The translations under genes were made by a program, and so were the position numbers. DNA of 26,501 nt, taken from IMG/VR virus record IMGVR_UViG_2698536418_000022; one strand, 5' to 3'. This document shows, piece after piece, positions 2,653 through 19,641 of the stretch. Under the pieces are notes generated by a model. That model was not told where the DNA came from. It saw nothing but the letters and a program-made list of their open reading frames with translations, and ran no database searches. The number at the start of each line of letters is the position of its first letter. Within the stretch, counting starts at the first letter, position 1. The stretch is from a virus (taxonomy: Duplodnaviria; Heunggongvirae; Uroviricota; Caudoviricetes).

Positions 2653-3257
2653 GCGTTTACTCTCAGATTATCAATTAAATGAATGGCCGGGGCAGGGAAA
2701 TAATCCCCTTCGACAATAATGGACTCCGGGGTGTAGGGATAAACCGTCAGGGCATCGCCGTGATAGCATCCCGTACCAACGAAAATCTTTCCGTTCACAC
2801 TCAGGCTGATCGCCAGCCCCGTCAGATGGCGACTTACTGGTTTTGCATCCGCAATAAGGCGCTCAAGTTCCTGATACATTTCATCGGTGATGCCCTGATC
2901 AAGTACTCCGACAACAATGCGAAATGTTCCTGGCTCCTCGTTGAGTTGCCACCACTCCTTTACTTCAATCAGGTAGCCGAGAGGCTCCACGGCTCTTCGC
3001 AGTGCGCTGATGGTCCCTTTGTGTCGGTGTATCAGCCATGCATCACGAATTACCTGTCGCTTTGTCTCTTCCGGCCAGTTGCGATCCCAGCGGTCAACGG
3101 AAAACGCCCAGGCGAGATAAGGCAGCAGATGCACCGGGCAGGTGTCCGGCGACCACAGCGTGTTGAGGTCTACCGGAATGTCTGTAATGCGTGTTCCGAC
3201 GGCTTCGGCACAACGCATGAAATTGCTGGCTGATGGTGGTAACAACGAATTACTCAT
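2649..3257 (-). CDS. baseplate assembly protein (P2 gpI-like)
   Basis: Start re-placed to the ATG at 3255-3257 (MSNSLLPP...), matching the recalled P2 gpI N-terminus; the track start at 3290 is a GTG extension. Stop overlaps the H start. Confidence 0.85.
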   Translation of the reverse strand: MSNSLLPPSASNFMRCAEAVGTRITDIPVDLNTLWSPDTCPVHLLPYLAWAFSVDRWDRNWPEETKRQVIRDAWLIHRHKGTISALRRAVEPLGYLIEVKEWWQLNEEPGTFRIVVGVLDQGITDEMYQELERLIADAKPVSRHLTGLAISLSVNGKIFVGTGCYHGDALTVYPYTPESIIVEGDYFPAPAIHLIDNLRVNA

Positions 3258-4146
3258 TGCGTCCACCTTCGCTGATGGTGAATGACTCACAGCGCGCCGC
3301 CTGTATGTCGCTGATGGTCATATTCTGTGTGGGTTCGATTATCTCCACGCGTTGCACACCGTGCACATGCAGTGCGGCAGCAATGGCGGACAACGCCACG
3401 TCCTGACCGATAAGCCCCTGCTCAGCCAGCCACTTCCTGAACGACGATTCAGCCGCGGCCAGAATAGGTTCGGATTCCGGGCCGGGGTAAAAGTACAGTT
3501 TTGCATTCAGCCGCCATGTCACGATTCTGGCGCTCTGTACGGTCAGGCGGTCGGCCACCGGGCGGGTATCCTCTGCATTCAGAACGGCGCGAACGGTATT
3601 AAGCAACGCCTCCGTTGCTGTGCCGTCGCCCTCAGTGGACAGGATGGAAACCGTCACATTTGCCGGAGACGGGCTGATAGCCCGCGCATCACGCACCAGA
3701 CCGCTGGCGCTGCGGGCAAAATACTCGTATGCACCTGACGGGCCAGCAACACTCAGGCCGTCGTACGCCCGCTGCGCCCGCAGTCTCAGCGAGGTGTCGC
3801 TCTCCATCACCGCGTCGGTGGTATCCGTTGCCGGAGTGATGGTCAGGCGCTTTGTGTTCATATTGCCCGCGAGGTTGTCCAGGTCTGTCCCGGCGCTGTG
3901 GCTTAACATGCAGGCGCGTGCCCCCTCATTGACCCGCTGGCGTAACAGCATTTCACGAAACGCTGTTGTCTGGGCGATAACGTTCAGGGGTTCCGATTCC
4001 AGCTCCAGCGCGGCGGAAACGGCTTCACGCTGTTCGGCGGGATAAGCCGCAATCATCATGGCCTTTGTGTCAGCCAGAATTGCCTCAAAATCAGGCTTCG
4101 CGATGATGGCGGGTTCCGGTAACTGGGAAAGGTCAACAGCAGGCAT
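3250..4146 (-). CDS. baseplate assembly protein J (P2 gpJ-like)
   Basis: 298 aa, ATG at 4144-4146, position between W and I as in P2. Confidence 0.9.
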   Translation of the reverse strand: MPAVDLSQLPEPAIIAKPDFEAILADTKAMMIAAYPAEQREAVSAALELESEPLNVIAQTTAFREMLLRQRVNEGARACMLSHSAGTDLDNLAGNMNTKRLTITPATDTTDAVMESDTSLRLRAQRAYDGLSVAGPSGAYEYFARSASGLVRDARAISPSPANVTVSILSTEGDGTATEALLNTVRAVLNAEDTRPVADRLTVQSARIVTWRLNAKLYFYPGPESEPILAAAESSFRKWLAEQGLIGQDVALSAIAAALHVHGVQRVEIIEPTQNMTISDIQAARCESFTISEGGRNE

Positions 4147-4149
4147 GAT

Positions 4150-4500
4150 TTACTCTCTCAGCGTGATGGTTAATTCAACATTCTGCATGGTCTGCATAAC
4201 AGTGCCCGACAGCGTCACCCCGGCGCGGCCTCCTGCCTTCCAGACAACGTCGATAGCGTCCAGGGCAATGCGGGGTTCCCATCGTGTCAGCGCAATCACG
4301 GCAGCACTCATGCATTGCAGACGCGTGGTGTTATTCATGGGTTCGTCAATCAAATCAGGCACAAGGCTGCCATATTCCCGTCGCATAACCCGGCTTGCCA
4401 GCGGGGTGGTCAGGATGTCCCTGACTGACTGTTTCAGGTGCTCCATATCGTTCAGGTTTCCCGTTCCGTCCGGGTTCATTCCTGTGTAGCGGGTTGTCAC
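4150..4500 (-). CDS. baseplate protein W (P2 gpW-like, GPW/gp25 family)
   Basis: 116 aa; N-terminus MTTRYTGMN resembles recalled P2 gpW (MTARYLGMN). GTG start at 4498-4500 overlaps the V stop (GTGA). Confidence 0.85.
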   Translation of the reverse strand: MTTRYTGMNPDGTGNLNDMEHLKQSVRDILTTPLASRVMRREYGSLVPDLIDEPMNNTTRLQCMSAAVIALTRWEPRIALDAIDVVWKAGGRAGVTLSGTVMQTMQNVELTITLRE

Positions 4501-11137: not shown

Positions 11138-12889
11138 ATGATTCAGGACGCTTTTGTGCGCCAGCGTGCGCGGCAACTTTACTGGCAGGGTTATCCGCCC
11201 GCAGAAATATCACGTCTGATGGGAATAAACCCGAACACGGTTTATGCGTGGAAAAAACGCGACCAGTGGGATGAAACGCCACCCGTGCAGCGTGTCACGC
11301 AGTCCATCGATGCGCGCCTCATCCAGCTTACTGAAAAACAGAATAAAACAGGCGGTGACTTTAAGGAAATAGACCTGCTGACCCGGCAGCTTAAAAAGCT
11401 GCATGATGGCCAGCCGGATGTGATGGCCGCAGGAAAGAAAGGCCGGGCGAAAAAACTCAAAAATCATTTCACGCCGGAACAGATTGCCGCACTGCGGGAA
11501 AAAATCATCAGCAGGCTGGAGTGGCATCAGCGGGGCTGGTTTGACTCCCTGACACTTTGCAAGGAAGCCGGGATACGTAACAGGATGATCCTGAAATCCC
11601 GACAGATTGGGGCGACCTGGTATTTTGCACAGGAAGCTCTGCTGATGGCGCTGCGTGACGATGTGGCGCAACCTTACCAGCGTAACCAGATTTTTTTGTC
11701 TGCGTCGCGTCGTCAGGCGTTCCAGTTCAAAAGCATTATTCAGAAGGCCGCGGCTGAAGTTGATGTGGAGCTGAAAGGGGGCGATAAAATCATCCTCTCC
11801 AACGGTGCAGAGCTGCATTTTCTCGGCACTTCTGCTGCGTCGGCACAGTCCTATACGGGCAATTTTTATTTTGATGAATTTTTCTGGGTCAGTCGCTTTG
11901 CTGAACTGCGCAAGGTGGCTGGCGCTATGGCAACCCTCAGCGGACTGCGGCGCACCTACTTCTCCACGCCATCCACCGAAACGCACGAGGCATACGCCTA
12001 CTGGAACGGCGACCGCTGGAACGAGAAAAAGGCCACGCATAAACGCCAGCGTTTTTCTGTGGACTGGAAAACGCTGCATAACGGGCTTATCTGCCCTGAC
12101 CGGACGTGGCGGCAAATTGTCACGCTGGAAGATGTGGTTAATCACGGCTGGAAACACACCGATATTGACGAAATTCGTGATGAAAACACCGAAGACGAGT
12201 TCCGCAATCTCTATATGTGTGAGTTTGTCCGCGAAGGGGAATCGGCATTTAACCTGAATATCCTGATTGGCTGCGGTGTTGACGGATACGACGACTGGAA
12301 AGACTGGAAACCTTTTGCTCCCCGCCCGATGGGGAATCGTCCGGTATGGATTGGGTATGACGCAAACGGCAGCAGTGGCAACGGCGACAGCGGCGCTGTG
12401 TCCGTGGTGGTTCCTCCGGCTGTTCCTGGTGGCCGTTTTCGAACGGTGGAGACGCGACGCGTTCAGGGGCTGGAGTTTGAAGAACAGGCCAGAGTCATTG
12501 AAGAGTTCACGTGTCGCTACAACGTGGAACACATCGGCATTGATGTGACGGGCGGGAACGGGGAGGCTGTTTATCAGATAGTGAAACGGTTTTTCCCTGC
12601 TGCTATTCCGTACACCTTCACGCTGTCATCAAAACGGTCGCTGGTACTGAAAATGCTGCAAATAATGCGTGCCGGGCGGTGGGAATACGATCGCGCCGAA
12701 CGCGAGCTGGTCGCGGCCTTTAACGCCGTGCGTAAGGTGAAAACACCGGGCGGTTTTATCACTTACGAAACGGACCGTGCGAGGGGGATCAGCCACGGCG
12801 ACCTTGCGTGGGCAACCATGCTTGCTGTCATTAACGAACCAATTGGCGGCGAAGGGGAAAACGAGCGTTTTACGGTTATGGAGTTCTGA
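11138..12889 (+). CDS. terminase ATPase (large) subunit (P2 gpP-like)
   Basis: 583 aa, ATG at 11138 with GGGGGAG RBS. Confidence 0.9.
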   Translation: MIQDAFVRQRARQLYWQGYPPAEISRLMGINPNTVYAWKKRDQWDETPPVQRVTQSIDARLIQLTEKQNKTGGDFKEIDLLTRQLKKLHDGQPDVMAAGKKGRAKKLKNHFTPEQIAALREKIISRLEWHQRGWFDSLTLCKEAGIRNRMILKSRQIGATWYFAQEALLMALRDDVAQPYQRNQIFLSASRRQAFQFKSIIQKAAAEVDVELKGGDKIILSNGAELHFLGTSAASAQSYTGNFYFDEFFWVSRFAELRKVAGAMATLSGLRRTYFSTPSTETHEAYAYWNGDRWNEKKATHKRQRFSVDWKTLHNGLICPDRTWRQIVTLEDVVNHGWKHTDIDEIRDENTEDEFRNLYMCEFVREGESAFNLNILIGCGVDGYDDWKDWKPFAPRPMGNRPVWIGYDANGSSGNGDSGAVSVVVPPAVPGGRFRTVETRRVQGLEFEEQARVIEEFTCRYNVEHIGIDVTGGNGEAVYQIVKRFFPAAIPYTFTLSSKRSLVLKMLQIMRAGRWEYDRAERELVAAFNAVRKVKTPGGFITYETDRARGISHGDLAWATMLAVINEPIGGEGENERFTVMEF

Positions 12890-13935
12890 TGAGCAGAAAA
12901 AATAAAAAAGTGCGCATGAGTTCACGCATTGATCTCGCTGATGCGCTCAGGAAAGAATCGTCGCTCAGTGCATTCACATTTGATGGTCCTTATCGCCTGA
13001 CCGGGCATGATTTGCTGGACAATATGTACTGTGCTGATAACGGGCGGTGGTATGAAACCCCGGTGGACTGGTACGGTCTGGCAAGAGCTGCCCGGCAAAC
13101 GTCCTGGCATCAGTCTGCGCTTTACTTTAAGCGCAATGTATTGCTCGGTTGCTATATTCCGCACCCGCTGCTTTCCCGGCAGGATTTCTCGGCGCTGGCG
13201 CTGGACTGGTTTGTGTTCGGTAACGCATTTCTTGAGCTTCGAAGCAATATGCTCGGCGAACCGCTTAAATTACGGCACGCCCTGGCGAAATACATGCGAC
13301 GCGGAAGCGATCTTGAATCATGGTGGTATGTTCAGGATGGCAAGGATGCGTTTCAGTTTCGCCCTGGCAAAGTGTGCCACCTGATGAATCCGGACATTAA
13401 CCAGGAAATTTACGGCATGCCGGAATATCTTGGCGCATTACTCTCGGCCAGCCTGTCTCATTCGGCGGACATGTTCAGAAAACTGTATTACGACAATGGA
13501 TCCCACGCCGGGTGCATCATCTATATCGGTGCAGCGCAGGTAAACCGCGAAAGCATGGACTCCCTGAAAGAAACGTTACAGGGTGCGCGTGGTGGTGGTG
13601 CGTTTAAAAACGTGCTCATCCATGCGCCCAACGGGGGCAAAGAGGGGGTGCAAATTTTGCCGTTCCAGCAGATCACCGCAAAAGATGAGTTCATGAATGT
13701 TAAGGCGGCATCCCGTGATGATGTGCTGGCTGCGCACCGTGTTCCACCGCAACTGATGGGGGCGATGCCGGGCGAAAAAAGTGCGTTTGGTGATGTGGAG
13801 AAGGCCGCGCGGGTTTACGCAATTAACGAGCTGATGCCCGTCATGGAGGCCATGAAGCACATCAATGACTGGCTTGGCGAAGAGGTGATCCGCTTTAACC
13901 CTTACGCACTGTTAGATACCCAGCCCACATCCTGA
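12889..13935 (+). CDS. portal protein (P2 gpQ-like)
   Basis: 348 aa, ATG overlapping the P stop by 1 nt (TGATG). Confidence 0.9.
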   Translation: MSRKNKKVRMSSRIDLADALRKESSLSAFTFDGPYRLTGHDLLDNMYCADNGRWYETPVDWYGLARAARQTSWHQSALYFKRNVLLGCYIPHPLLSRQDFSALALDWFVFGNAFLELRSNMLGEPLKLRHALAKYMRRGSDLESWWYVQDGKDAFQFRPGKVCHLMNPDINQEIYGMPEYLGALLSASLSHSADMFRKLYYDNGSHAGCIIYIGAAQVNRESMDSLKETLQGARGGGAFKNVLIHAPNGGKEGVQILPFQQITAKDEFMNVKAASRDDVLAAHRVPPQLMGAMPGEKSAFGDVEKAARVYAINELMPVMEAMKHINDWLGEEVIRFNPYALLDTQPTS

Positions 13936-13985: not shown

Positions 13986-14360
13986 GACTCTCCAGCTCCT
14001 GTATCAGTCAGATAATTTCACGACGCTTTCCTGCTTATTGCCATCATCGACGGTCAGATTCTTACGCAATCCCACTGCGCTGACTGCATGTTCTCGCCGC
14101 CTCAGTGCGATTTTGACGGCCTTACCTTTCACCCCATCAAACCAGAATCCCTCACGTATTTTTCACGCTCAGCGTGAGAAATACGGCCATTCTGTCGTGT
14201 CGCTGCGACATCGTTAAGGGAACGCTATTTACCCCCCTGAAACGCGGGCTGTTCCCCCGTCACCTGCGCGCAGAAAAAACGCGTTTTTTTGTGCACGTAC
14301 GGATCCTTGACGGATCCAGCCACCACGCGGGCCGGAAGTACAAAAAGTCGTTCAAAAAAA

Positions 14361-14390
14361 TTGTGCAAACTTGTGCACTATCGTGCAAAC
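14361..14390. repeat. three 10-bp-phased copies of TGTGCA(A/C) (TTGTGCAAAC / TTGTGCACTA / TCGTGCAAAC)
   Basis: Direct inspection; helically phased short repeats in the cos-proximal intergenic region. Confidence 0.5.
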
Positions 14391-14413
14391 AAAAAAAGCG
14401 CCTTATCGGCGCT
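14385..14413 (-). terminator. rho-independent terminator for the minus-strand small gene ending at 14423
   Basis: On the minus strand: stem AGCGCC / GGCGCT with a 5 nt loop, followed by TTTTTTTGTTT. Confidence 0.7.
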
Positions 14414-14422
14414 TCAAAAGTA

Positions 14423-14692
14423 TCAATTGTTGCTGTTTATTAATCGCCAACCACGAACATATGCTTCATAGGCATCTCTGTGCCTTACAGTTCCAGCCTG
14501 GCTAAACGGAATGTTAGCTAAAACTAAATCATTCTGAGCCATAGCGCGTCCTTCAAGCGCATCTTTTATGCCTAGCTCAAAAGCACAGGCAGCGCATTTG
14601 TGCCGACCTTCTTGTCCTTGATATTCAGGGAGAGACAGAAATGTTGGATTATAACGATGAGGGTTCTTGCAAATACCTGTTTTAGCCCGCAC
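14423..14692 (-). CDS. hypothetical small protein (89 aa if GTG start at 14692; 39 aa if ATG at 14542)
   Basis: ORF followed by a strong terminator. Contains C/H-rich segment (CKNPH...HKCAAC). No confident family assignment from sequence alone. Confidence 0.35.
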   Translation of the reverse strand: MRAKTGICKNPHRYNPTFLSLPEYQGQEGRHKCAACAFELGIKDALEGRAMAQNDLVLANIPFSQAGTVRHRDAYEAYVRGWRLINSNN

Positions 14693-14715
14693 TTTATTTA
14701 CCTCATAGGAAAAAT

Positions 14716-14802
14716 ATGCGTGCCTTTACAGAGGTGCGTGTAAGCAATAAAATATACGACGCACATTTTGATTTACTTCGGAAGGCACGCATATCAGGTT
14801 AA
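14716..14802 (+). CDS. candidate 28-aa small ORF (MRAFTEVRVSNKIYDAHFDLLRKARISG); may instead be a small RNA
   Basis: ATG at 14716 with AGGA 6 nt upstream, followed 20 nt downstream by a strong plus-strand terminator. Internal inverted repeat GCGTGCCTT / AAGGCACGC. Confidence 0.3.
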   Translation: MRAFTEVRVSNKIYDAHFDLLRKARISG

Positions 14803-14821
14803 GTGAGTCCGACCGAGTTTT

Positions 14822-14856
14822 ACGCCCCAATAGTTGCTGCTATTGGGGCGTTTTGC
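14822..14856 (+). terminator. rho-independent terminator (plus strand)
   Basis: Stem CGCCCCAATAG / CTATTGGGGCG (11 bp) with a 6 nt loop, followed by TTTT. Confidence 0.7.
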
Positions 14857-15056
14857 ATGGACAATGCCGCGCAATTATCTTGTCGCTCACAATGCGAACG
14901 ATCTTACAAAAAGGCACATTACTGTCAAGATAATTGATCGTTTTAATCGATAGATAATAGACAATCTATTTGTTTAACAGATCGATTATTGAAGTAAGTG
15001 TGCCAAATGGAATGATACTGTCTCTATAAACGTGAGCATTTTTCGCGCAGATGCTT

Positions 15057-15368
15057 TTACTCAGGAAATAACGCCCGGATATTCCCAGCCATCTGGCTGG
15101 TTATCTTAGCCACTGGTGCAGACTGTGCTTCAAACTTTTTTGAGCTGATTTGTGTCACAGGTAACATCTCATCATCAGCCCATGCGGCCAGTCGGTAAGC
15201 CTCTGCCGGATTCGTCTTCAGAAGTGCCAGCCCGGCCAGAAAAGCCACGCGTTGGCCGCTTTTGCGGGCTTCTGGTGTAAGGCTGTCCAGCCAGGCGCAT
15301 GCTTCTCCTTCGTTCTTGACGGCGGCGGGCTTCAGATAGAAACTTATCCGTCTGGTTGGTGTCGTCAT
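15057..15368 (-). CDS. parR: ParR-like centromere-binding adaptor (type II partition)
   Basis: Start placed at ATG 15366-15368, 4 nt after the parM stop with AAGGAG RBS. N-terminal RRISFYLKP...VAFLAGLALL and C-terminal IRALFP resemble recalled plasmid R1 ParR (RRTIAFKLNP...LTAGLALY...LRSLFP). Confidence 0.7.
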   Translation of the reverse strand: MTTPTRRISFYLKPAAVKNEGEACAWLDSLTPEARKSGQRVAFLAGLALLKTNPAEAYRLAAWADDEMLPVTQISSKKFEAQSAPVAKITSQMAGNIRALFPE

Positions 15369-15372
15369 TGGT

Positions 15373-16332
15373 TTACTCCTTGTCCATTGCGTACAGCCCA
15401 TTAACCAGAGCAAACTGTGGCACCCCGTCCGCGATGAAAGTCGCATTAACTCCGCAGGCTTCGCGGATAGCGGGTGCCACAATCTCCGCCCCGCCACCGA
15501 CAACCATCACCCGCCCGTAACCCGAAAAAACCGCCAGCGCGCGGATCACGCGTTGTTTCAGTGTTTCTTCCTTTTCACGAATAACCGCCATCAGGCTGGC
15601 GTAATGCGCGTCATTGTGGATGTGCTGGCGCAGCCAGGCTTCATTATGGCGATGTTCGATAATGGTATTGGCGATGTGGTGACTGGTGCGCATACCGTTA
15701 GTGGCCATCACCGACAGTACGGCATCGGCCATAAGAGAAACGCCTACGTGTGGATCGCAAAACACCTGGCTGATACCTGCCAGTTGCCCCTGAACCTTTG
15801 CCACATCCAGCGTGGTTCCGCCCAAATCCACAATCAGCAGGGATTCAAACGGACTCATGTCAGCCAGTGCTTTAAAGCCAGCCGGAATGGATTCAGGCAT
15901 AACCCGTACGTTACGGATAGTGAATGCTTCGCCGTTCTGGTACTCCACCGGGCGCATGACGTTCGCTTTTTTGCGGTTGATGTTGGCCATGTCCGGCTGT
16001 GCGTTTGTGTCGAAATATTCGCTCAGTGGCAGGGTAACAACCACATCCACTTCCTGTGGCGTGATGTCTGATTTGACCAGCGCGTGATGAATGGCAATGA
16101 CATTCACATCGCTGTACTGGTATTGCGTGTCGGTCGTCTGGACAAAGCGATCGCTGACCGGATCAAAACCATAGCGCACGCCATCAAGCATGTAGTTAGC
16201 AGGCTGCGAGCCACCGAACGGCGCAGACCATTCCGACTTGAAGCTGTTCGGGCTGATGGCGTTGCGGCGTTCGCCGTTCTCAGTCCATGCCAGCTTGATG
16301 TTGGTGGAGCCGTCGTCGATGTAAATTTTCAT
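15373..16332 (-). CDS. parM: ParM/StbA-like actin-family segregation ATPase
   Basis: 319 aa. IDDGSTNIKL, ISPNSFK, YSDVNVIAIHHAL, VMPESIPAG, SLLIVDLGGTTLD, FSGYGRVMVVGGGAE blocks are near-collinear with recalled plasmid R1 ParM. ATG at 16330-16332 with AAGGA RBS. Confidence 0.85.
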   Translation of the reverse strand: MKIYIDDGSTNIKLAWTENGERRNAISPNSFKSEWSAPFGGSQPANYMLDGVRYGFDPVSDRFVQTTDTQYQYSDVNVIAIHHALVKSDITPQEVDVVVTLPLSEYFDTNAQPDMANINRKKANVMRPVEYQNGEAFTIRNVRVMPESIPAGFKALADMSPFESLLIVDLGGTTLDVAKVQGQLAGISQVFCDPHVGVSLMADAVLSVMATNGMRTSHHIANTIIEHRHNEAWLRQHIHNDAHYASLMAVIREKEETLKQRVIRALAVFSGYGRVMVVGGGAEIVAPAIREACGVNATFIADGVPQFALVNGLYAMDKE

Positions 16333-16363: not shown

Positions 16364-16476
16364 TTTACGGGATTCTGAAATCCCGTTTTTGCCTGTTTTG
16401 TGCGCGCCTCATATATCGCTGCGCGTTTTTTGCTCATTTACGGGATTCGTGAGTCCCGTTTCTGTCTGTTTTTTGT
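16364..16476. repeat. two ~39 bp direct repeats (74 bp apart), each with an ACGGGATT...AATCCCGT-type palindrome and a T-rich tail; candidate parC-like centromere/promoter
   Basis: Copy 1 at 16364-16402 is intergenic upstream of parM. Copy 2 at 16438-16476 overlaps the 3' end of gene A. About 80 percent identical. Confidence 0.5.
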
Positions 16477-19255
16477 TTCCACTGGTCAGGCCACCCCGCA
16501 GCAGGTCTGCTTTGCGGCTGGCGCGTTCAGTGGTTTCACTGATTCTCTGTGCGTGCTCTGCGTCGCGGATGGCGCGCAGCATGTCAGAAAGCACGGTAAC
16601 GGGTGTTTTCATGGTGTTCTGGTCCTGCTGAAGTGTGGATGCCAGGCGTGCGGCGGCTTCAGGGTCTGATGCCCCCAGCTGTGCCAGATAGCTGGCGACC
16701 GGGTTATGGCGGATCTCCGTGCTGCTTACGCCATGATTACGGCTCAGACGCTGCCAGAGCTGCGTGATTCGGCTGTCCGGGCGGGTATCCGGTTTGCGTA
16801 CAATTTCAAATCCCTGCGGTGCAATGATGCTGCCGTCAACGTACAGACTGCCGCCCCGTAACAGGTGCTGCATCTGTTGTTCACCGATATGCAGGCCGAG
16901 AGATTCAGCAGACTCCCGCCATTCTTTAGCGAGTAACTCGTGGTTATCAGGCAAAGGCCGCTGCTGTTTGCGGCTCTGTGTCCAGTTCTGCATTTCATCG
17001 CTGCTGTTTTTTGCCTGTTTGTCACGAAGCGAACGCATCAGCGCCCGGCGTTCGTGCCGTTTCAGTGAGCGCATCCATTCATTTACTTCAACGCCGTCAG
17101 GAAGCTGCGGCCACGGTGCTGGCCGTTCTTCCGGCTGTTCTGTCCCGTTGTTGCCTGTTTCCTGTACACGGGGACAGTTATTGCCACGAGTCCGAGTCCA
17201 AGGGGCGGCAGGGCCGCCCTGAAGGTCAAAACCATTTTCGCGGGCGCTGTCTTCCGCTTCCGGTTTGCGTCTTACCAGCTTCCAGTTATCCGGATGCGTG
17301 CATACGCGGGAAGACTCCCCAATGAGCGGCGACCAGATCCCGTAAATCTGTACGCTCTGTTCACCGTAATCGTTCAGCTCATCTGCGAGGTCGTAGGCGG
17401 TGCGAATCAGGTAGTCTTTGCGTGGAACAAGTACGCCACCCTGTTTCTCAATGTAGGTGGCAAAACATCCGGCATCAGCGGCAGCGAGTACCGCGTCCAT
17501 TGCGTCATCCTTCAGCCGTTGCGGGCCTTCCGGATTGCGTGCCATCTGGCTGGCAAGGCGGCGCAGTTCACGCCACACCTGACGGGAGGGGATGCCAAAG
17601 AACTGGAACTGACGGACCCGGTGAAGGCGCGCCCAGCCGATGGCGCGCTCCACGCTCTCGGCCATTGATTTACCTGTTTCGTGGTCAACGCGTGGCTTGC
17701 CCGTTTTCGGGTCGATGCCATCCACGGCGCGGCTGTCCAGGTTCTTTCCGATGTAGGTGGCGATGTAGCTGGTTGGCGTGCCTTTTGAGCCGTCGACGTA
17801 CTCCGCCTTAAAACGCGGAGTTATGTCATCGCCCAGCTCGTGGCGGTCTTCCTGAATGGCAATATCGCAGACGTGGGACACGATGGTTTCAATCTCGTCC
17901 GGATGTGCAAAGACCATCATATGCCAGTGCACAGTGCCGTCATGGTGAGGCTCCACCGTGCGGATGCCATACCAGCGCAGGCCGTCGCGGTTCAGTTTTT
18001 TGCGGACCGCCGCAAAAAACGTGTTAACCAGGTAATCGCTGGAGTCGCGCATAGTGGCCCCGTTCCATTTGGGATTCGGATGACCGTTCTCCGTTGTTGC
18101 GTGGTATTTTGACGGGCAGGTGACAGTCAGAAACACCGCTCTGTCGCCACGGGCTTCGGCCAGAAGTTCCAGCCCCTTCATGGTGGCCATCATTTCTGCC
18201 TTACGGTGAACCGGGTTACTTACTCCCGCGTAATACACCGTCTCGAGATCAATCGTGAACCCGTCTTCATTTTCCAGCATGAAACTTTTCAGGAAATCGC
18301 GTGTTTTCTCGCGCTGTGCGCGAAACTCGCTTAACGCGTCCTGGCTCAGATAGGGTGATGTTTTTCTGGAAACCAGACAGGCGGCGCGGAGTTGTTCTTC
18401 CCGCCACTCGCAACGTAACAGCCACAGTTTGCGTTTCCACCATTCCGCACAGGTCAGGCGAAGGATTGCGCCCGGCAGCAGCTCCGTGTCCGGTTCGTTC
18501 CTCCGGTCTTTGTCTGTTGTCAGTGCGTCATAATGTGGAGGCATGGCGTGCAGGTGTAACGCCATGCGGGCCAGCATCTGATACGCCTTCAGCGTTACAT
18601 CCATGGTCAGCTCACCATCGGTCGCGCCAAAGCCATCGCAGAGTTTTTCGAAGGTGCTGCTGAACATCGCCGCCGTCATGGTGGCCAGCGTCTGTATCTG
18701 GTGCTTGTTGAGCTGCGGCAGGTAAAGCAAATCATCCAGGCGTTCGCGTCCGGCAAGGGAGCGATAACCCGGTGTCAGCCAGCGGTGGTCGGTGCGGTCC
18801 AGGCGTTCGAATATTTTGCGCAGGGTTCCGCGCGCGTAGCGTTCAGCCTGCCAGCTCTTTTTGCCTTTCTGGCGATCGGCTTCCTGTTTTTTGCGCAGGA
18901 AAGAGAGGTGGCGGCTCAGAGGTTCACGCAGATAAACGGGAAGCACCTTCAGTGTGGCAAAAGCACGGGCCACCGGGTCTTGTTCTGTTGCCTGACGCTT
19001 GCTGATGATGCTTTGTGCCAGCTTTTCACGCTGTCCGGCTTCCTCAAGGGATGCCATGAGTTTTTTACCCACGGTGGATTGTGCGAAAAAGGCTTCCTCC
19101 TTCGCTTCCTGTTCTTCCAGAGCCTTTTTGTCTGCCTCAAGGTAGTAACGGATGGCGCGTTGCAGGTCGGTTTCAGTTTCCTGCCTGTGCTCCGTAAATC
19201 TGGCCGGATCAATGGCTGGCCGTGGTTCATTCCAGCTCCATGCAAACTCATTCAT
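16409..19255 (-). CDS. replication initiation endonuclease (P2 gpA-like rolling-circle initiator)
   Basis: Blocks TLTCPSRFHATT-like, PNPKWNGAT, HHDGTVHWHMMVF, AAADAGCFATYI, GGVLVPRK match recalled P2 gpA. Start placed at ATG 19253-19255 (track start is GTG at 19282). About 190 aa longer than P2 A at the C-terminus. Confidence 0.85.
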   Translation of the reverse strand: MNEFAWSWNEPRPAIDPARFTEHRQETETDLQRAIRYYLEADKKALEEQEAKEEAFFAQSTVGKKLMASLEEAGQREKLAQSIISKRQATEQDPVARAFATLKVLPVYLREPLSRHLSFLRKKQEADRQKGKKSWQAERYARGTLRKIFERLDRTDHRWLTPGYRSLAGRERLDDLLYLPQLNKHQIQTLATMTAAMFSSTFEKLCDGFGATDGELTMDVTLKAYQMLARMALHLHAMPPHYDALTTDKDRRNEPDTELLPGAILRLTCAEWWKRKLWLLRCEWREEQLRAACLVSRKTSPYLSQDALSEFRAQREKTRDFLKSFMLENEDGFTIDLETVYYAGVSNPVHRKAEMMATMKGLELLAEARGDRAVFLTVTCPSKYHATTENGHPNPKWNGATMRDSSDYLVNTFFAAVRKKLNRDGLRWYGIRTVEPHHDGTVHWHMMVFAHPDEIETIVSHVCDIAIQEDRHELGDDITPRFKAEYVDGSKGTPTSYIATYIGKNLDSRAVDGIDPKTGKPRVDHETGKSMAESVERAIGWARLHRVRQFQFFGIPSRQVWRELRRLASQMARNPEGPQRLKDDAMDAVLAAADAGCFATYIEKQGGVLVPRKDYLIRTAYDLADELNDYGEQSVQIYGIWSPLIGESSRVCTHPDNWKLVRRKPEAEDSARENGFDLQGGPAAPWTRTRGNNCPRVQETGNNGTEQPEERPAPWPQLPDGVEVNEWMRSLKRHERRALMRSLRDKQAKNSSDEMQNWTQSRKQQRPLPDNHELLAKEWRESAESLGLHIGEQQMQHLLRGGSLYVDGSIIAPQGFEIVRKPDTRPDSRITQLWQRLSRNHGVSSTEIRHNPVASYLAQLGASDPEAAARLASTLQQDQNTMKTPVTVLSDMLRAIRDAEHAQRISETTERASRKADLLRGGLTSGNKKQTETGLTNPVNEQKTRSDI

Positions 19256-19641
19256 GGCTGGTATCCCGTCACGCGCTGCCACTCCTGCGAGAAGAGGGCA
19301 GAAAGGCGGTTAAATTCAGCGGTGTATTCACTCAGCGAGGCACACCCGCCAGCAGTGCGATGCGCCAGCATTGCCGCAAATACGGAGGCCGGGGAGTCGT
19401 AATACGCCAGCAGTGATTCTCCGTGTGGTGTCAGGCAGTGCAACGCCAGCCCGTGTGGTGTGAAGTCCACGCGGTAGCAGTCGTCTACTGTGAAATAAAG
19501 GGTGTCTGCATTCTCCGGTTTTGTGGTGCGTGCTCTGTTGTCACGACCACGGATGTAGAGATCAAATAATCCCTGAAGAACGGGAGCCAGACGGGTGTCC
19601 TGTGTGCGCACCCATCTTGTGAAGTCATGAGCGTCAATCAT
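19252..19641 (-). CDS. hypothetical early-operon protein (129 aa)
   Basis: ATG at 19639-19641; stop overlaps the A start by 4 nt (translational coupling). Confidence 0.5.
   Translation of the reverse strand: MIDAHDFTRWVRTQDTRLAPVLQGLFDLYIRGRDNRARTTKPENADTLYFTVDDCYRVDFTPHGLALHCLTPHGESLLAYYDSPASVFAAMLAHRTAGGCASLSEYTAEFNRLSALFSQEWQRVTGYQP

Follow-up and report, generated by a model that had tools for sequence, protein, structure and literature searches.

What is encoded between the parR gene and the cos side of a P2-like prophage, where two small genes seem to run away from each other between strong terminators? We addressed this question at the IMG/VR virus record IMGVR_UViG_2698536418_000022, a 26,501-nt stretch of DNA (the window) that proved to be a P2-like prophage with Xuanwuvirus (Peduoviridae) prophages of E. 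coli as close DNA matches. A preliminary description of the sequence had proposed a divergent pair, consisting of a minus-strand open reading frame (ORF) with a Cys/His-rich segment, called orf89 here, and a 28-codon plus-strand ORF. All the features that it described were present at the positions given. Our analysis nevertheless pointed to a different organization, in which the two transcription units overlap, the mRNA promoter of orf89 being located beyond the plus-strand terminator. We consider it more likely than not that the locus is an autonomous cargo cassette of the P2-like prophage that encodes a small, probably zinc-binding protein gated by an antisense RNA.

The minus-strand ORF (14423-14692), an 89-amino-acid frame with a GTG start, is a genuine gene. 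Its product matched the hidden Markov model (HMM) of PHROG 3941, a family of unassigned function, at E = 9.1e-49, with residues 4-89 aligned to profile positions 1-86 of 86, and the Cys/His segment comprises C8, H12, H31, C33 and C36. A Shine-Dalgarno (SD) sequence GAGGT is read directly at 14700-14704 on the minus strand (acctc on the plus strand), 7 nt before the GTG, and the SD region TGAGGTAAAT.AAA was kept in the closest leader relatives. The terminator that had been noticed behind this gene was located by the terminator scan at 14387-14415 on the minus strand (hairpin 14415-14395 with 8 pairs, 5 of them G-C, followed by the T-run TTTTGTTT). RefSeq calls orf89 a hypothetical protein, in only some genomes, and annotates no plus-strand gene in the region.

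The promoter of the orf89 mRNA was predicted at 14901-14928 on the minus strand, with a TTGACA −35 element at 14928-14923, a 16-nt spacer and a TAAGAT −10 element at 14906-14901 (10 of 12 matches in the promoter scan). The corresponding transcription start site (TSS) at ~14894 would give a 5′ untranslated region (UTR) of ~200 nt. An equivalent promoter was present at a near-constant distance in nearly all group-A leaders, predicting 5′ UTRs of ~170 nt, and the sense promoter, the SD block and a leader hairpin (hairpin B) of the window aligned base-for-base with the closest leader relatives, L173, L283 and L285. The sense promoter is bracketed by an 11-bp perfect inverted repeat, CAATTATCTTG / CAAGATAATTG (14872-14882 and 14926-14936), which may be an operator for some repressor. 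A third near-copy of this motif, AGATAATAGA, was found at 14952-14961.

The reading of the locus turns on a second promoter, opposed to the gene. On the plus strand, a σ70 promoter was predicted at 14725-14753 (−35 TTTACA at 14725-14730, 17-nt spacer, −10 TAAAAT at 14748-14753; 10/12 in the promoter scan), placed within the 3′ arm and loop of a long leader hairpin, hairpin C. Opposite the gene, 70 of 156 unique leaders, representing 16 clusters (<80% identity), contained the motif TTTAC[AT]-N17/18-[TC]A...T at a distance of 21-41 nt from the start codon; the sense strand contained none, and dinucleotide shuffles contained 0.83 on average and 4 at most. The motif-bearing leaders belonged to Enterobacterales/Orbales. 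The layout was common to homologues with 44-64% protein identity, even where the sequence could not be aligned, from Providencia, Proteus, Gilliamella, Pantoea, Escherichia, Serratia, Pectobacterium, Citrobacter, Klebsiella and viral or metagenomic contigs. Since the antisense −35 element lies only ~33 nt from the start codon, the mRNA promoter must be located upstream of it and the transcripts must overlap. In the window, the mRNA promoter (14928-14901) lies beyond the plus-strand terminator, and the plus-strand RNA would thus be cis-antisense to the 5′ leader of the mRNA.

Downstream of the antisense promoter, a simple hairpin followed by a T-run was present in the antisense orientation in 49 of the 70 leaders, compared to 9 sense-strand matches, and the predicted antisense RNAs were 29-202 nt long (median 71 nt). 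Textbook antisense terminators with perfect T-runs were found at the Serratia, Pectobacterium and Citrobacter loci (group B). The plus-strand terminator hairpin of the preliminary description, our hairpin B, occupies 14822-14856 in the window, with a 12-bp perfect stem (14822-14833/14840-14851) and a 6-nt loop followed by TTTTG; we read it as the terminator of the antisense small RNA (sRNA), and it also forms in the leader of the orf89 mRNA. The consensus terminator scan skipped hairpin B, the T count being one short with the full stem, and a scan with an 11-bp stem listed it. With the start set by the −10 element and the end by the terminator, a cis-antisense sRNA of ~98 nt is predicted at ~14760-14857 on the plus strand, fully complementary to the middle of the orf89 leader, and the computed duplex was full-length. 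With a conserved antisense promoter and no conserved frame, the plus-strand unit is better explained as a small RNA than as a peptide, a possibility already raised in the preliminary description. A search of the window with Rfam 15, including the sar, ctRNA and Spot 42 families, returned no match at E < 0.2 (best scores 22 bits, where the thresholds are 43-45, and 19 bits, where the threshold is 80), and eight related loci showed no Rfam match in the leader, only sub-threshold terminator matches.

Both strands of the leader were predicted to be highly structured. The plus strand at 14700-14862 folded at −64 kcal/mol (z = −6.6, reached by 0 of 200 shuffles) and the minus strand at 14693-14900 with z = −4.8. 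In the order of the mRNA, the fold consists of a 5′ hairpin, hairpin B (14851-14822), hairpin C (14795-14713), the SD, the GTG, orf89 and its terminator. Hairpin C (14713-14795, minus strand) combines a 14-bp outer stem (14782-14795 with 14713-14726) with an inner GUGCGU/ACGCAC stem, and its 3′ arm stops 20 nt ahead of the start codon. Its outer stem contains the perfect inverted repeat (14714-14726 / 14782-14794; 13 nt, 100% complementary, 55 nt apart) that had been described as internal to the plus-strand ORF; the repeat is there, but its 5′ arm overlaps the ATG of that ORF and it makes up a hairpin of the mRNA leader rather than a feature of a plus-strand gene.

Conservation of this architecture was evident from comparative folding. 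RNAalifold detected no pairs in the full alignment of 27 leaders (A5), which was too heterogeneous, and a homogeneous sister subgroup of 17 leaders (A6) was used instead. The consensus structure of this subgroup contained hairpin B, the long hairpin C with its outer and inner stems, and an SD-sequestering hairpin D. Its cells were paired in 91% of cases compared to 83% in column shuffles (0/500 reached this value), and the covariation score was 0.276 compared to 0.130 (0/500), with 11 pairs showing double changes, although these statistics overstate independence among related sequences and come from a sister subgroup rather than from the window's own lineage. Slid controls of the same structure were only 35-49% paired. 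The upper stem of hairpin B also covaried in the sister subgroup (4 pairs with double changes), and the whole hairpin was identical in the L173/L283/L285-type relatives. Because a G·U pair turns into an A·C mismatch when the opposite strand is read, such pairs indicated the strand on which each hairpin acts. Sense-only G·U exceeded A·C cells by 25 to 2 in the outer stem of hairpin C and by 22 to 1 in hairpin D, indicating that both are structures of the mRNA. The balance was close to even in hairpin B (7 vs 4) and in the inner stem of hairpin C (1 vs 4); the symmetry makes hairpin B compatible with either strand, including a terminator role in the antisense RNA. The best direct structural evidence for the window itself came from the comparison with L173, L283 and L285, where a different, unrelated pair of complementary sequences, GAGGTGTCATCT / AGATGAACACCTC, takes the place of the hairpin C arms of the window, ATATGCGTGCCTT / AAGGCACGCATAT. 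Across 37 leaders, the sense strand had the more favorable minimum free energy (MFE) in 28.

This arrangement suggests how the two RNAs might interact. Because the antisense promoter occupies the 3′ arm and loop of hairpin C, complementarity of the sRNA extends over the 5′ strand of the inner stem, the 5′ arm of the hairpin, the spacer and hairpin B. The minus-strand σ70 promoter would produce the orf89 mRNA with its ~200-nt leader, and the opposed promoter the ~98-nt RNA, running through the 5′ arm of hairpin C and stopping at hairpin B. When the sRNA is absent, hairpin C would hold its own 3′ arm; pairing of the sRNA with the 5′ arm and the inner stem strand would free the 3′ arm. Folding of the window mRNA with the sRNA target masked predicted that the freed arm GGCACGCAU pairs with GUGCGGGCU, the start-codon region containing the GTG, and that a CCU pairs with the AGG of the SD. 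Translation would then be blocked, and the long RNA duplex would be a likely substrate of RNase III, so that orf89 would be silenced by the sRNA, much as in a type I toxin-antitoxin (TA) or post-segregational module. Similar elements were present in related leaders: L285 contains an anti-SD ACCUC within the 3′ arm, the 3′ arm CAUUCAUUG of L103 is complementary to CAAUGAAUG at its start codon, and in L096-type leaders an anti-SD/SD hairpin abuts the arm. Among 73 leaders, masking lowered the predicted accessibility of the SD/start region in 48 and raised it in 4 (a modest shift, from 0.42 to 0.33) in what is a weak and biased test. What the sequences show is a real gene and a conserved, covarying architecture of promoters, terminator and hairpins; the transcripts, the direction of regulation, and the activity and toxicity of the protein are what we infer.

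GATC sites may add a second level of control. They occur in the window at 14900-14903, overlapping the sense −10 element (TAAGATC, 14900-14906), at 14936-14939, 8 nt upstream of the −35 element, and at 14980-14983; the sites at 14900 and 14936 were kept in L173, L283 and L285. In 25 promoter-plus-leader regions of the window's group (for example L096, L103, L179 and L089), GATC was by far the top palindromic tetramer, with 96 occurrences compared to 22 expected (z = 17.5). The GATC occurrences in related leaders include an invariant GAGATCTC at the predicted sRNA start. GATC was not in excess in the Serratia/Pectobacterium/Citrobacter group, where CATG was found 22 times compared to 9 expected. 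The GATC excess, together with the DpnII/Dam-type operons that contain distant homologues (see below), suggests expression that senses Dam methylation and a function related to adenine methylation. We therefore hypothesize, by analogy with the pIN promoter of IS10, that orf89 expression responds to the Dam methylation state, and that the function of the protein relates to adenine-methylated sites; the GATC excess may reflect either Dam control or the protein's own binding specificity.

Several observations weigh against this interpretation of the cassette. Both promoters, their TSSs and the sRNA terminator are predictions, and the T-tract behind hairpin B (TTTTG) is short. A covariance model built from the 17 sister leaders (R1) matched L173, L283 and L285 with ~30 bits (E ~1e-5) but gave only a non-significant 12.6 bits on the window (14790-14875, minus strand, E = 0.52). 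Since R1 misses the window, we claim a shared architecture and not membership in the model, with the evidence for homology coming from the promoter, hairpin B and SD blocks that the window has in common with L173 and L285. The E. coli copies of the cassette comprise 13 unique sequences with identities of 98.5% or more, too small and uniform a set to be informative on the frame or the structure. The antisense strand of the window folded slightly better than the sense strand (−71.4 vs −68.2 kcal/mol), the SD core was predicted to be paired in both states of the window leader, making the on/off logic less than clean, and masking always releases pairing partners, which biases the accessibility test. 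Finally, orf89 is hydrophilic and, at 89 amino acids, unlike most type I toxins, and the case for its toxicity is one of analogy.

One alternative is a locus in which the leader alone gates orf89, through sequestration of the SD that might be sensitive to Dam methylation, temperature or a protein, with the plus-strand promoter inactive and its TGTAAA kept for an RNA-level or protein-binding reason. The sense-specific G·U pairs do place hairpins C and D on the mRNA, the SD-sequestering hairpin covaries, the promoter and leader are strongly enriched in GATC, and the sRNA is known from sequence prediction. A leader without an antisense RNA would hardly account for the fixed 17/18-nt spacer and TAnnnT −10 element across 16 clusters with differing intervening sequence and no sense-strand occurrence, or for the T-runs behind hairpins that favor the antisense orientation and form perfect terminators in group B, and we regard it as unlikely. 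Nor is it easy to view the sRNA as a regulator acting mainly in trans on mRNAs of the host or of competing phages, with the overlap with the orf89 leader being secondary. Prophage-encoded trans-acting sRNAs are well known, and the very stable plus-strand fold, with a single-stranded 5′ region and a terminator hairpin, would suit one. Between clusters, however, it is the position relative to orf89 and not the sRNA sequence that is conserved, and the sRNA always travels with an orf89 homologue, which makes this explanation quite unlikely; it would in any case be compatible with cis regulation.

The inverted repeats could also act at the level of DNA, as a ParR centromere or operator, a cos-associated site or a cruciform, given that the region sits between parR and cos and that the 11-bp perfect repeat brackets the sense promoter. 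We find this very improbable: lambdoid prophages and other islands carry the cassette in the absence of both ParMR and cos, ParMR prophages lacking the cassette are ~7 times commoner, the G·U vs A·C asymmetry in sister leaders is not expected of DNA palindromes, and CAAGATAATTG is not enriched elsewhere in the window above chance, making a ParR iteron array unlikely. As for the original pair of divergent small protein genes, it now appears scarcely credible. The 28-codon ORF does exist on the plus strand (14716-14802), with AGGA 6 nt upstream of its ATG, and a similarly placed antisense ORF in L173-type relatives also begins with MR. Its ATG at 14716, however, lies 9 nt upstream of the −35 element (14725) of the only conserved plus-strand promoter and the ORF is therefore off the predicted transcript; the AGGA proposed as its ribosome-binding site merely complements the UCCU of the mRNA; and an antisense ORF of at least 15 codons near this position was missing from 17 of 42 related leaders and differed in frame, length and sequence in the others, whose peptides were unrelated. 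We rejected this ORF as a gene. What relatives conserve is the hairpin and promoter architecture, not the 28-codon frame.

The antisense-gated cassette lies in an accessory region flanked by the portal gene (12889-13935, plus strand) on one side and the gpA replication gene (16409-19282, minus strand) on the other. The region contains minus-strand genes for ParM (15373-16332) and a ParR/StbB-type protein (15057-15368), with orf89 located on the cos side of parR. This region is the cos-proximal hotspot of P2-like phages, known to harbor defense and other accessory systems, and about a quarter of these phages carry a partition system there (PMC9122126, PMC9519451). ParMR was found in 1303 of 5426 complete E. 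coli genomes, but the orf89 cassette in only 166, among them O157, O111 and enterotoxigenic E. coli (ETEC) strains. In ParMR genomes without the cassette, homology broke off within parR or, in most of them, precisely where parR stops (15057). The stretch from there to cos (14860-15056, compared with L330 2495-2902) is a variable slot, and in O26:H11 strain 11368 an unrelated 135-amino-acid ORF fills it; neither the neighboring genes nor the alternative genes of the slot, including this ORF, had any Pfam match.

Other sequence features of this part of the prophage were also recorded. A 23-nt sequence, ACGGGAnnnnnGAATCCCGTAAA, which contains a GGGA/TCCC inverted repeat, occurs twice in direct orientation on the minus strand, at 16364-16386 in the gpA-parM intergenic region and at 16437-16459 inside the 3′ end of gpA; the two copies are candidates for the parC centromere or a ParR operator. 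On the opposite side of orf89, in the segments 14274-14289 and 14357-14390, a palindrome, AAAAAACGCG/CGCGTTTTTT, resembles a bidirectional terminator, and beside it three closely spaced copies of (A/T)TGTGCA(A/C) lie between the portal/cos side and the orf89 terminator. The segment at ~14238-14258 resembles the cos sequences of P2 and 186 and is a candidate cos end.

Related cassettes occupy quite different places. In 21 E. coli genomes, an L103-type cassette separates the immunity and nin/Q regions of a lambdoid prophage, and others were found between lysis and late genes, adjoining integrases, ahead of a DUF4062 gene and in other islands. The promoter, leader, antisense gene, ORF and terminator move together as one mobile unit. 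In DNA searches of phage collections the window cassette matched only the same E. coli prophages, and plasmid collections gave no match. In a subgroup from Pectobacterium, Citrobacter and Buttiauxella (L085/L086 4315-5337; L107, L113), a gene for a DUF4062 protein of ~320-340 amino acids was located 46-108 nt downstream of the small gene, and the two may form a two-gene unit.

The protein itself belongs to a large family. An exhaustive phmmer search recovered 173 cluster representatives at E < 1e-3 and a profile search 795 family clusters at E < 1e-5, all of them unnamed, from many phyla and mostly stand-alone proteins of 80-95 amino acids. Residues C8, H12, Q25, R30, H31, G41, Q65, R70 and H71 were invariant in the alignment, and C33 and C36 nearly so, giving the signature C-x3-H...Q-G-x-G-R-H-K-C-x2-C...S-Q-A-G-x-x-R-H-K. 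The alignment also shows an internal duplication, in which Q-G-G-x-G-R-H-K-C-x-x-C-A-Y-E-x-G is followed by S-Q-A-G-x-x-R-H-K...A-Y-x-x-G-Y. C8, H12, C33 and C36 resemble a zinc site, and orf89 is probably a zinc-binding protein. An AlphaFold (AF2) model was confident, with a predicted local distance difference test (pLDDT) score of 91.8 and a predicted template modeling (pTM) score of 0.85, and showed a compact helical domain with no structural neighbor in the PDB or BFVD at E < 0.8; no sequence relative was found in the PDB either. Scans of orf89 against Pfam, NCBIfam and PADLOC-DB 2.0 gave no match, apart from a sub-threshold Pfam match to an O-methyltransferase dimerisation domain. A resemblance to ribosome modulation factor was weak and non-significant (hhalign probability 7%) and was discarded. 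Nucleic acid is the most likely ligand of the protein, possibly at sites related to GATC. Literature searches by sequence, DUF names and topic retrieved no description of the orf89 module.

Outside the enteric phages, the gene neighborhoods of the family pointed to adenine methylation. At 80 loci from species-representative genomes, a D12-class N6-adenine methyltransferase was encoded directly upstream in 16 and a DpnII-family endonuclease directly downstream in 14, as in the L109 operon, where the small gene x (3013-3267) stands between methyltransferase gene M (1922-2992) and restriction gene R (3273-4163). Other loci adjoined N6_N4 methyltransferases, a PD-(D/E)XK nuclease or a DUF6996/6997/7226 protein, and operons of the form M(D12)-DUF6996/6997/7226-x were present on independently examined contigs (L332, L336, L338). 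These neighbors indicate that, outside enteric phages, orf89 homologues are a recurrent third component of adenine-methyltransferase/restriction operons, for which we found no describing publication. In the window, no methyltransferase or nuclease partner lies near orf89, and the gene is an orphan there.

Fusion proteins extended this picture. The orf89-family domain forms the C-terminus of DGQHR (DndB/DpdB-like) proteins, in one case followed by an N6_N4 methyltransferase gene (L097 1837-4647), and of a WYL protein. A related tandem motif forms the N-terminus of NOV_C (PD-T4-1 / PDC-S36-like) and HNH nucleases. This tandem module consists of two copies of C-x-H...L-P-x-S-Q-G-G-x-G-R-H-K-C-x-x-C-A-Y and was observed in P0051, P0067, P0069 and P0083 (NOV_C fusions) and in P0063, P0065 and P0078 (HNH fusions). 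Its position ahead of restriction-endonuclease-like (NOV_C) or HNH nuclease domains suggests that the tandem Cys/His module may serve as the nucleic-acid-targeting unit of predicted defense nucleases. PADLOC-DB 2.0 gave no match to stand-alone family proteins and recognized family members only via the fused partner domains (DpdB/DndB, WYL, and PDC-S36 / PD-T4-1 through NOV_C).

Combining these lines leads to a bolder proposal, to which we give rather little credence at present, that the orf89 family is a nucleic-acid-reading module tied to GATC adenine methylation, acting in phages as a doubly gated effector and as the addiction half of a cassette beside ParMR, and constituting an undescribed type I TA or defense family. 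If so, the family would be the third component of Dam-like restriction-modification (R-M) operons, and its tandem motif the targeting domain of defense nucleases (NOV_C, HNH, DndB/DpdB-like and WYL fusions). Enteric temperate phages would deploy orf89 on its own as a toxin, anti-phage or anti-restriction effector, held in check doubly by a cis-antisense RNA and Dam-sensitive promoters, and beside ParMR it would serve a P2-like phage as the addiction half of a plasmid-style stability cassette, with a protein fold that the PDB lacks. A known hotspot holds a cassette in which the protein is annotated only as hypothetical and the RNA not at all, and an uncharacterized family spanning many phyla, linked to restriction-modification, has a confidently predicted fold without a solved relative. 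Should antisense control and toxicity hold, the cassette would add a new family to the RNA-controlled toxins or effectors, one with covariation support for its leader switch. The gene also offers a testable handle on the third gene of Dam-like R-M operons, and its association with ParMR suggests that partition and addiction functions can be combined in P2-like phages.

Comparison with characterized systems clarifies which parts of this cassette are familiar. The likeness to an RNA-controlled toxin or regulator module proposed in the preliminary description is borne out by analogy with hok/sok, tisB/istR-1, zorO/orzO and dinQ/agrB, in which a cis-antisense RNA of ~60-100 nt with its own promoter and terminator acts against the leader of a small-protein mRNA. 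As in hok/sok-type loci, mutually exclusive leader folds would hide the translation start, and the module moves as a unit on mobile elements. Plasmid R1 carries both ParMRC and hok/sok (the parB locus), and the cassette described here adjoins ParM and ParR. The protein differs: orf89 is an 89-residue hydrophilic polypeptide with a Cys/His signature rather than a membrane peptide of < 60 amino acids, and it had no Pfam match to Hok or any other toxin, just as the RNA had none in Rfam. Typical type I toxins are small hydrophobic membrane peptides, with SymE and RalR as exceptions. Parallels in this respect are SymE/SymR and the prophage-borne RalR/RalA, type I systems with soluble toxins that target nucleic acids. 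There, as predicted for orf89, a cis-antisense RNA directed at the 5′ end of the mRNA governs a small soluble protein that probably acts on nucleic acid. No sequence or fold similarity of orf89 to either protein was detected, and the SOS link of SymE is not evident here.

Regulatory elements outside the toxin-antitoxin field provide further parallels. C proteins, the small controllers of R-M systems, recall the distant orf89 homologues, which are likewise small and lie inside M-x-R or M-R-x operons with a D12-class adenine methyltransferase and a DpnII-type or DUF6996/6997/7226 protein; C proteins are, however, helix-turn-helix (HTH) proteins of the HTH_3 type, and Pfam and NCBIfam scans found no HTH in the window protein or its homologues. 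In P22 sar/ant, as predicted here, transcription of a short antisense RNA starts inside the leader of an accessory gene of the phage and stops at a strong hairpin; the Rfam match to sar (RF00262) covered the terminator hairpin only (22 bits vs a gathering threshold of 43, E = 0.31), and orf89 is unrelated to Ant. IS10 RNA-IN/RNA-OUT shares the opposed promoters, the antisense RNA directed against the mRNA 5′ end and the GATC overlapping the mRNA −10 element. The pIN promoter of IS10 is Dam-sensitive, and the analogous site over the −10 element suggests that the orf89 promoter may also be controlled by its methylation state. The two differ in that the overlap at orf89 is ~100 nt long and lies inside a 200-nt leader rather than at the extreme 5′ ends, and in that the product is not a transposase. 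Taken together, these analogies place the cassette within a regulatory layout of a known kind, that of a predicted cis-antisense RNA opposed to a structured mRNA leader.

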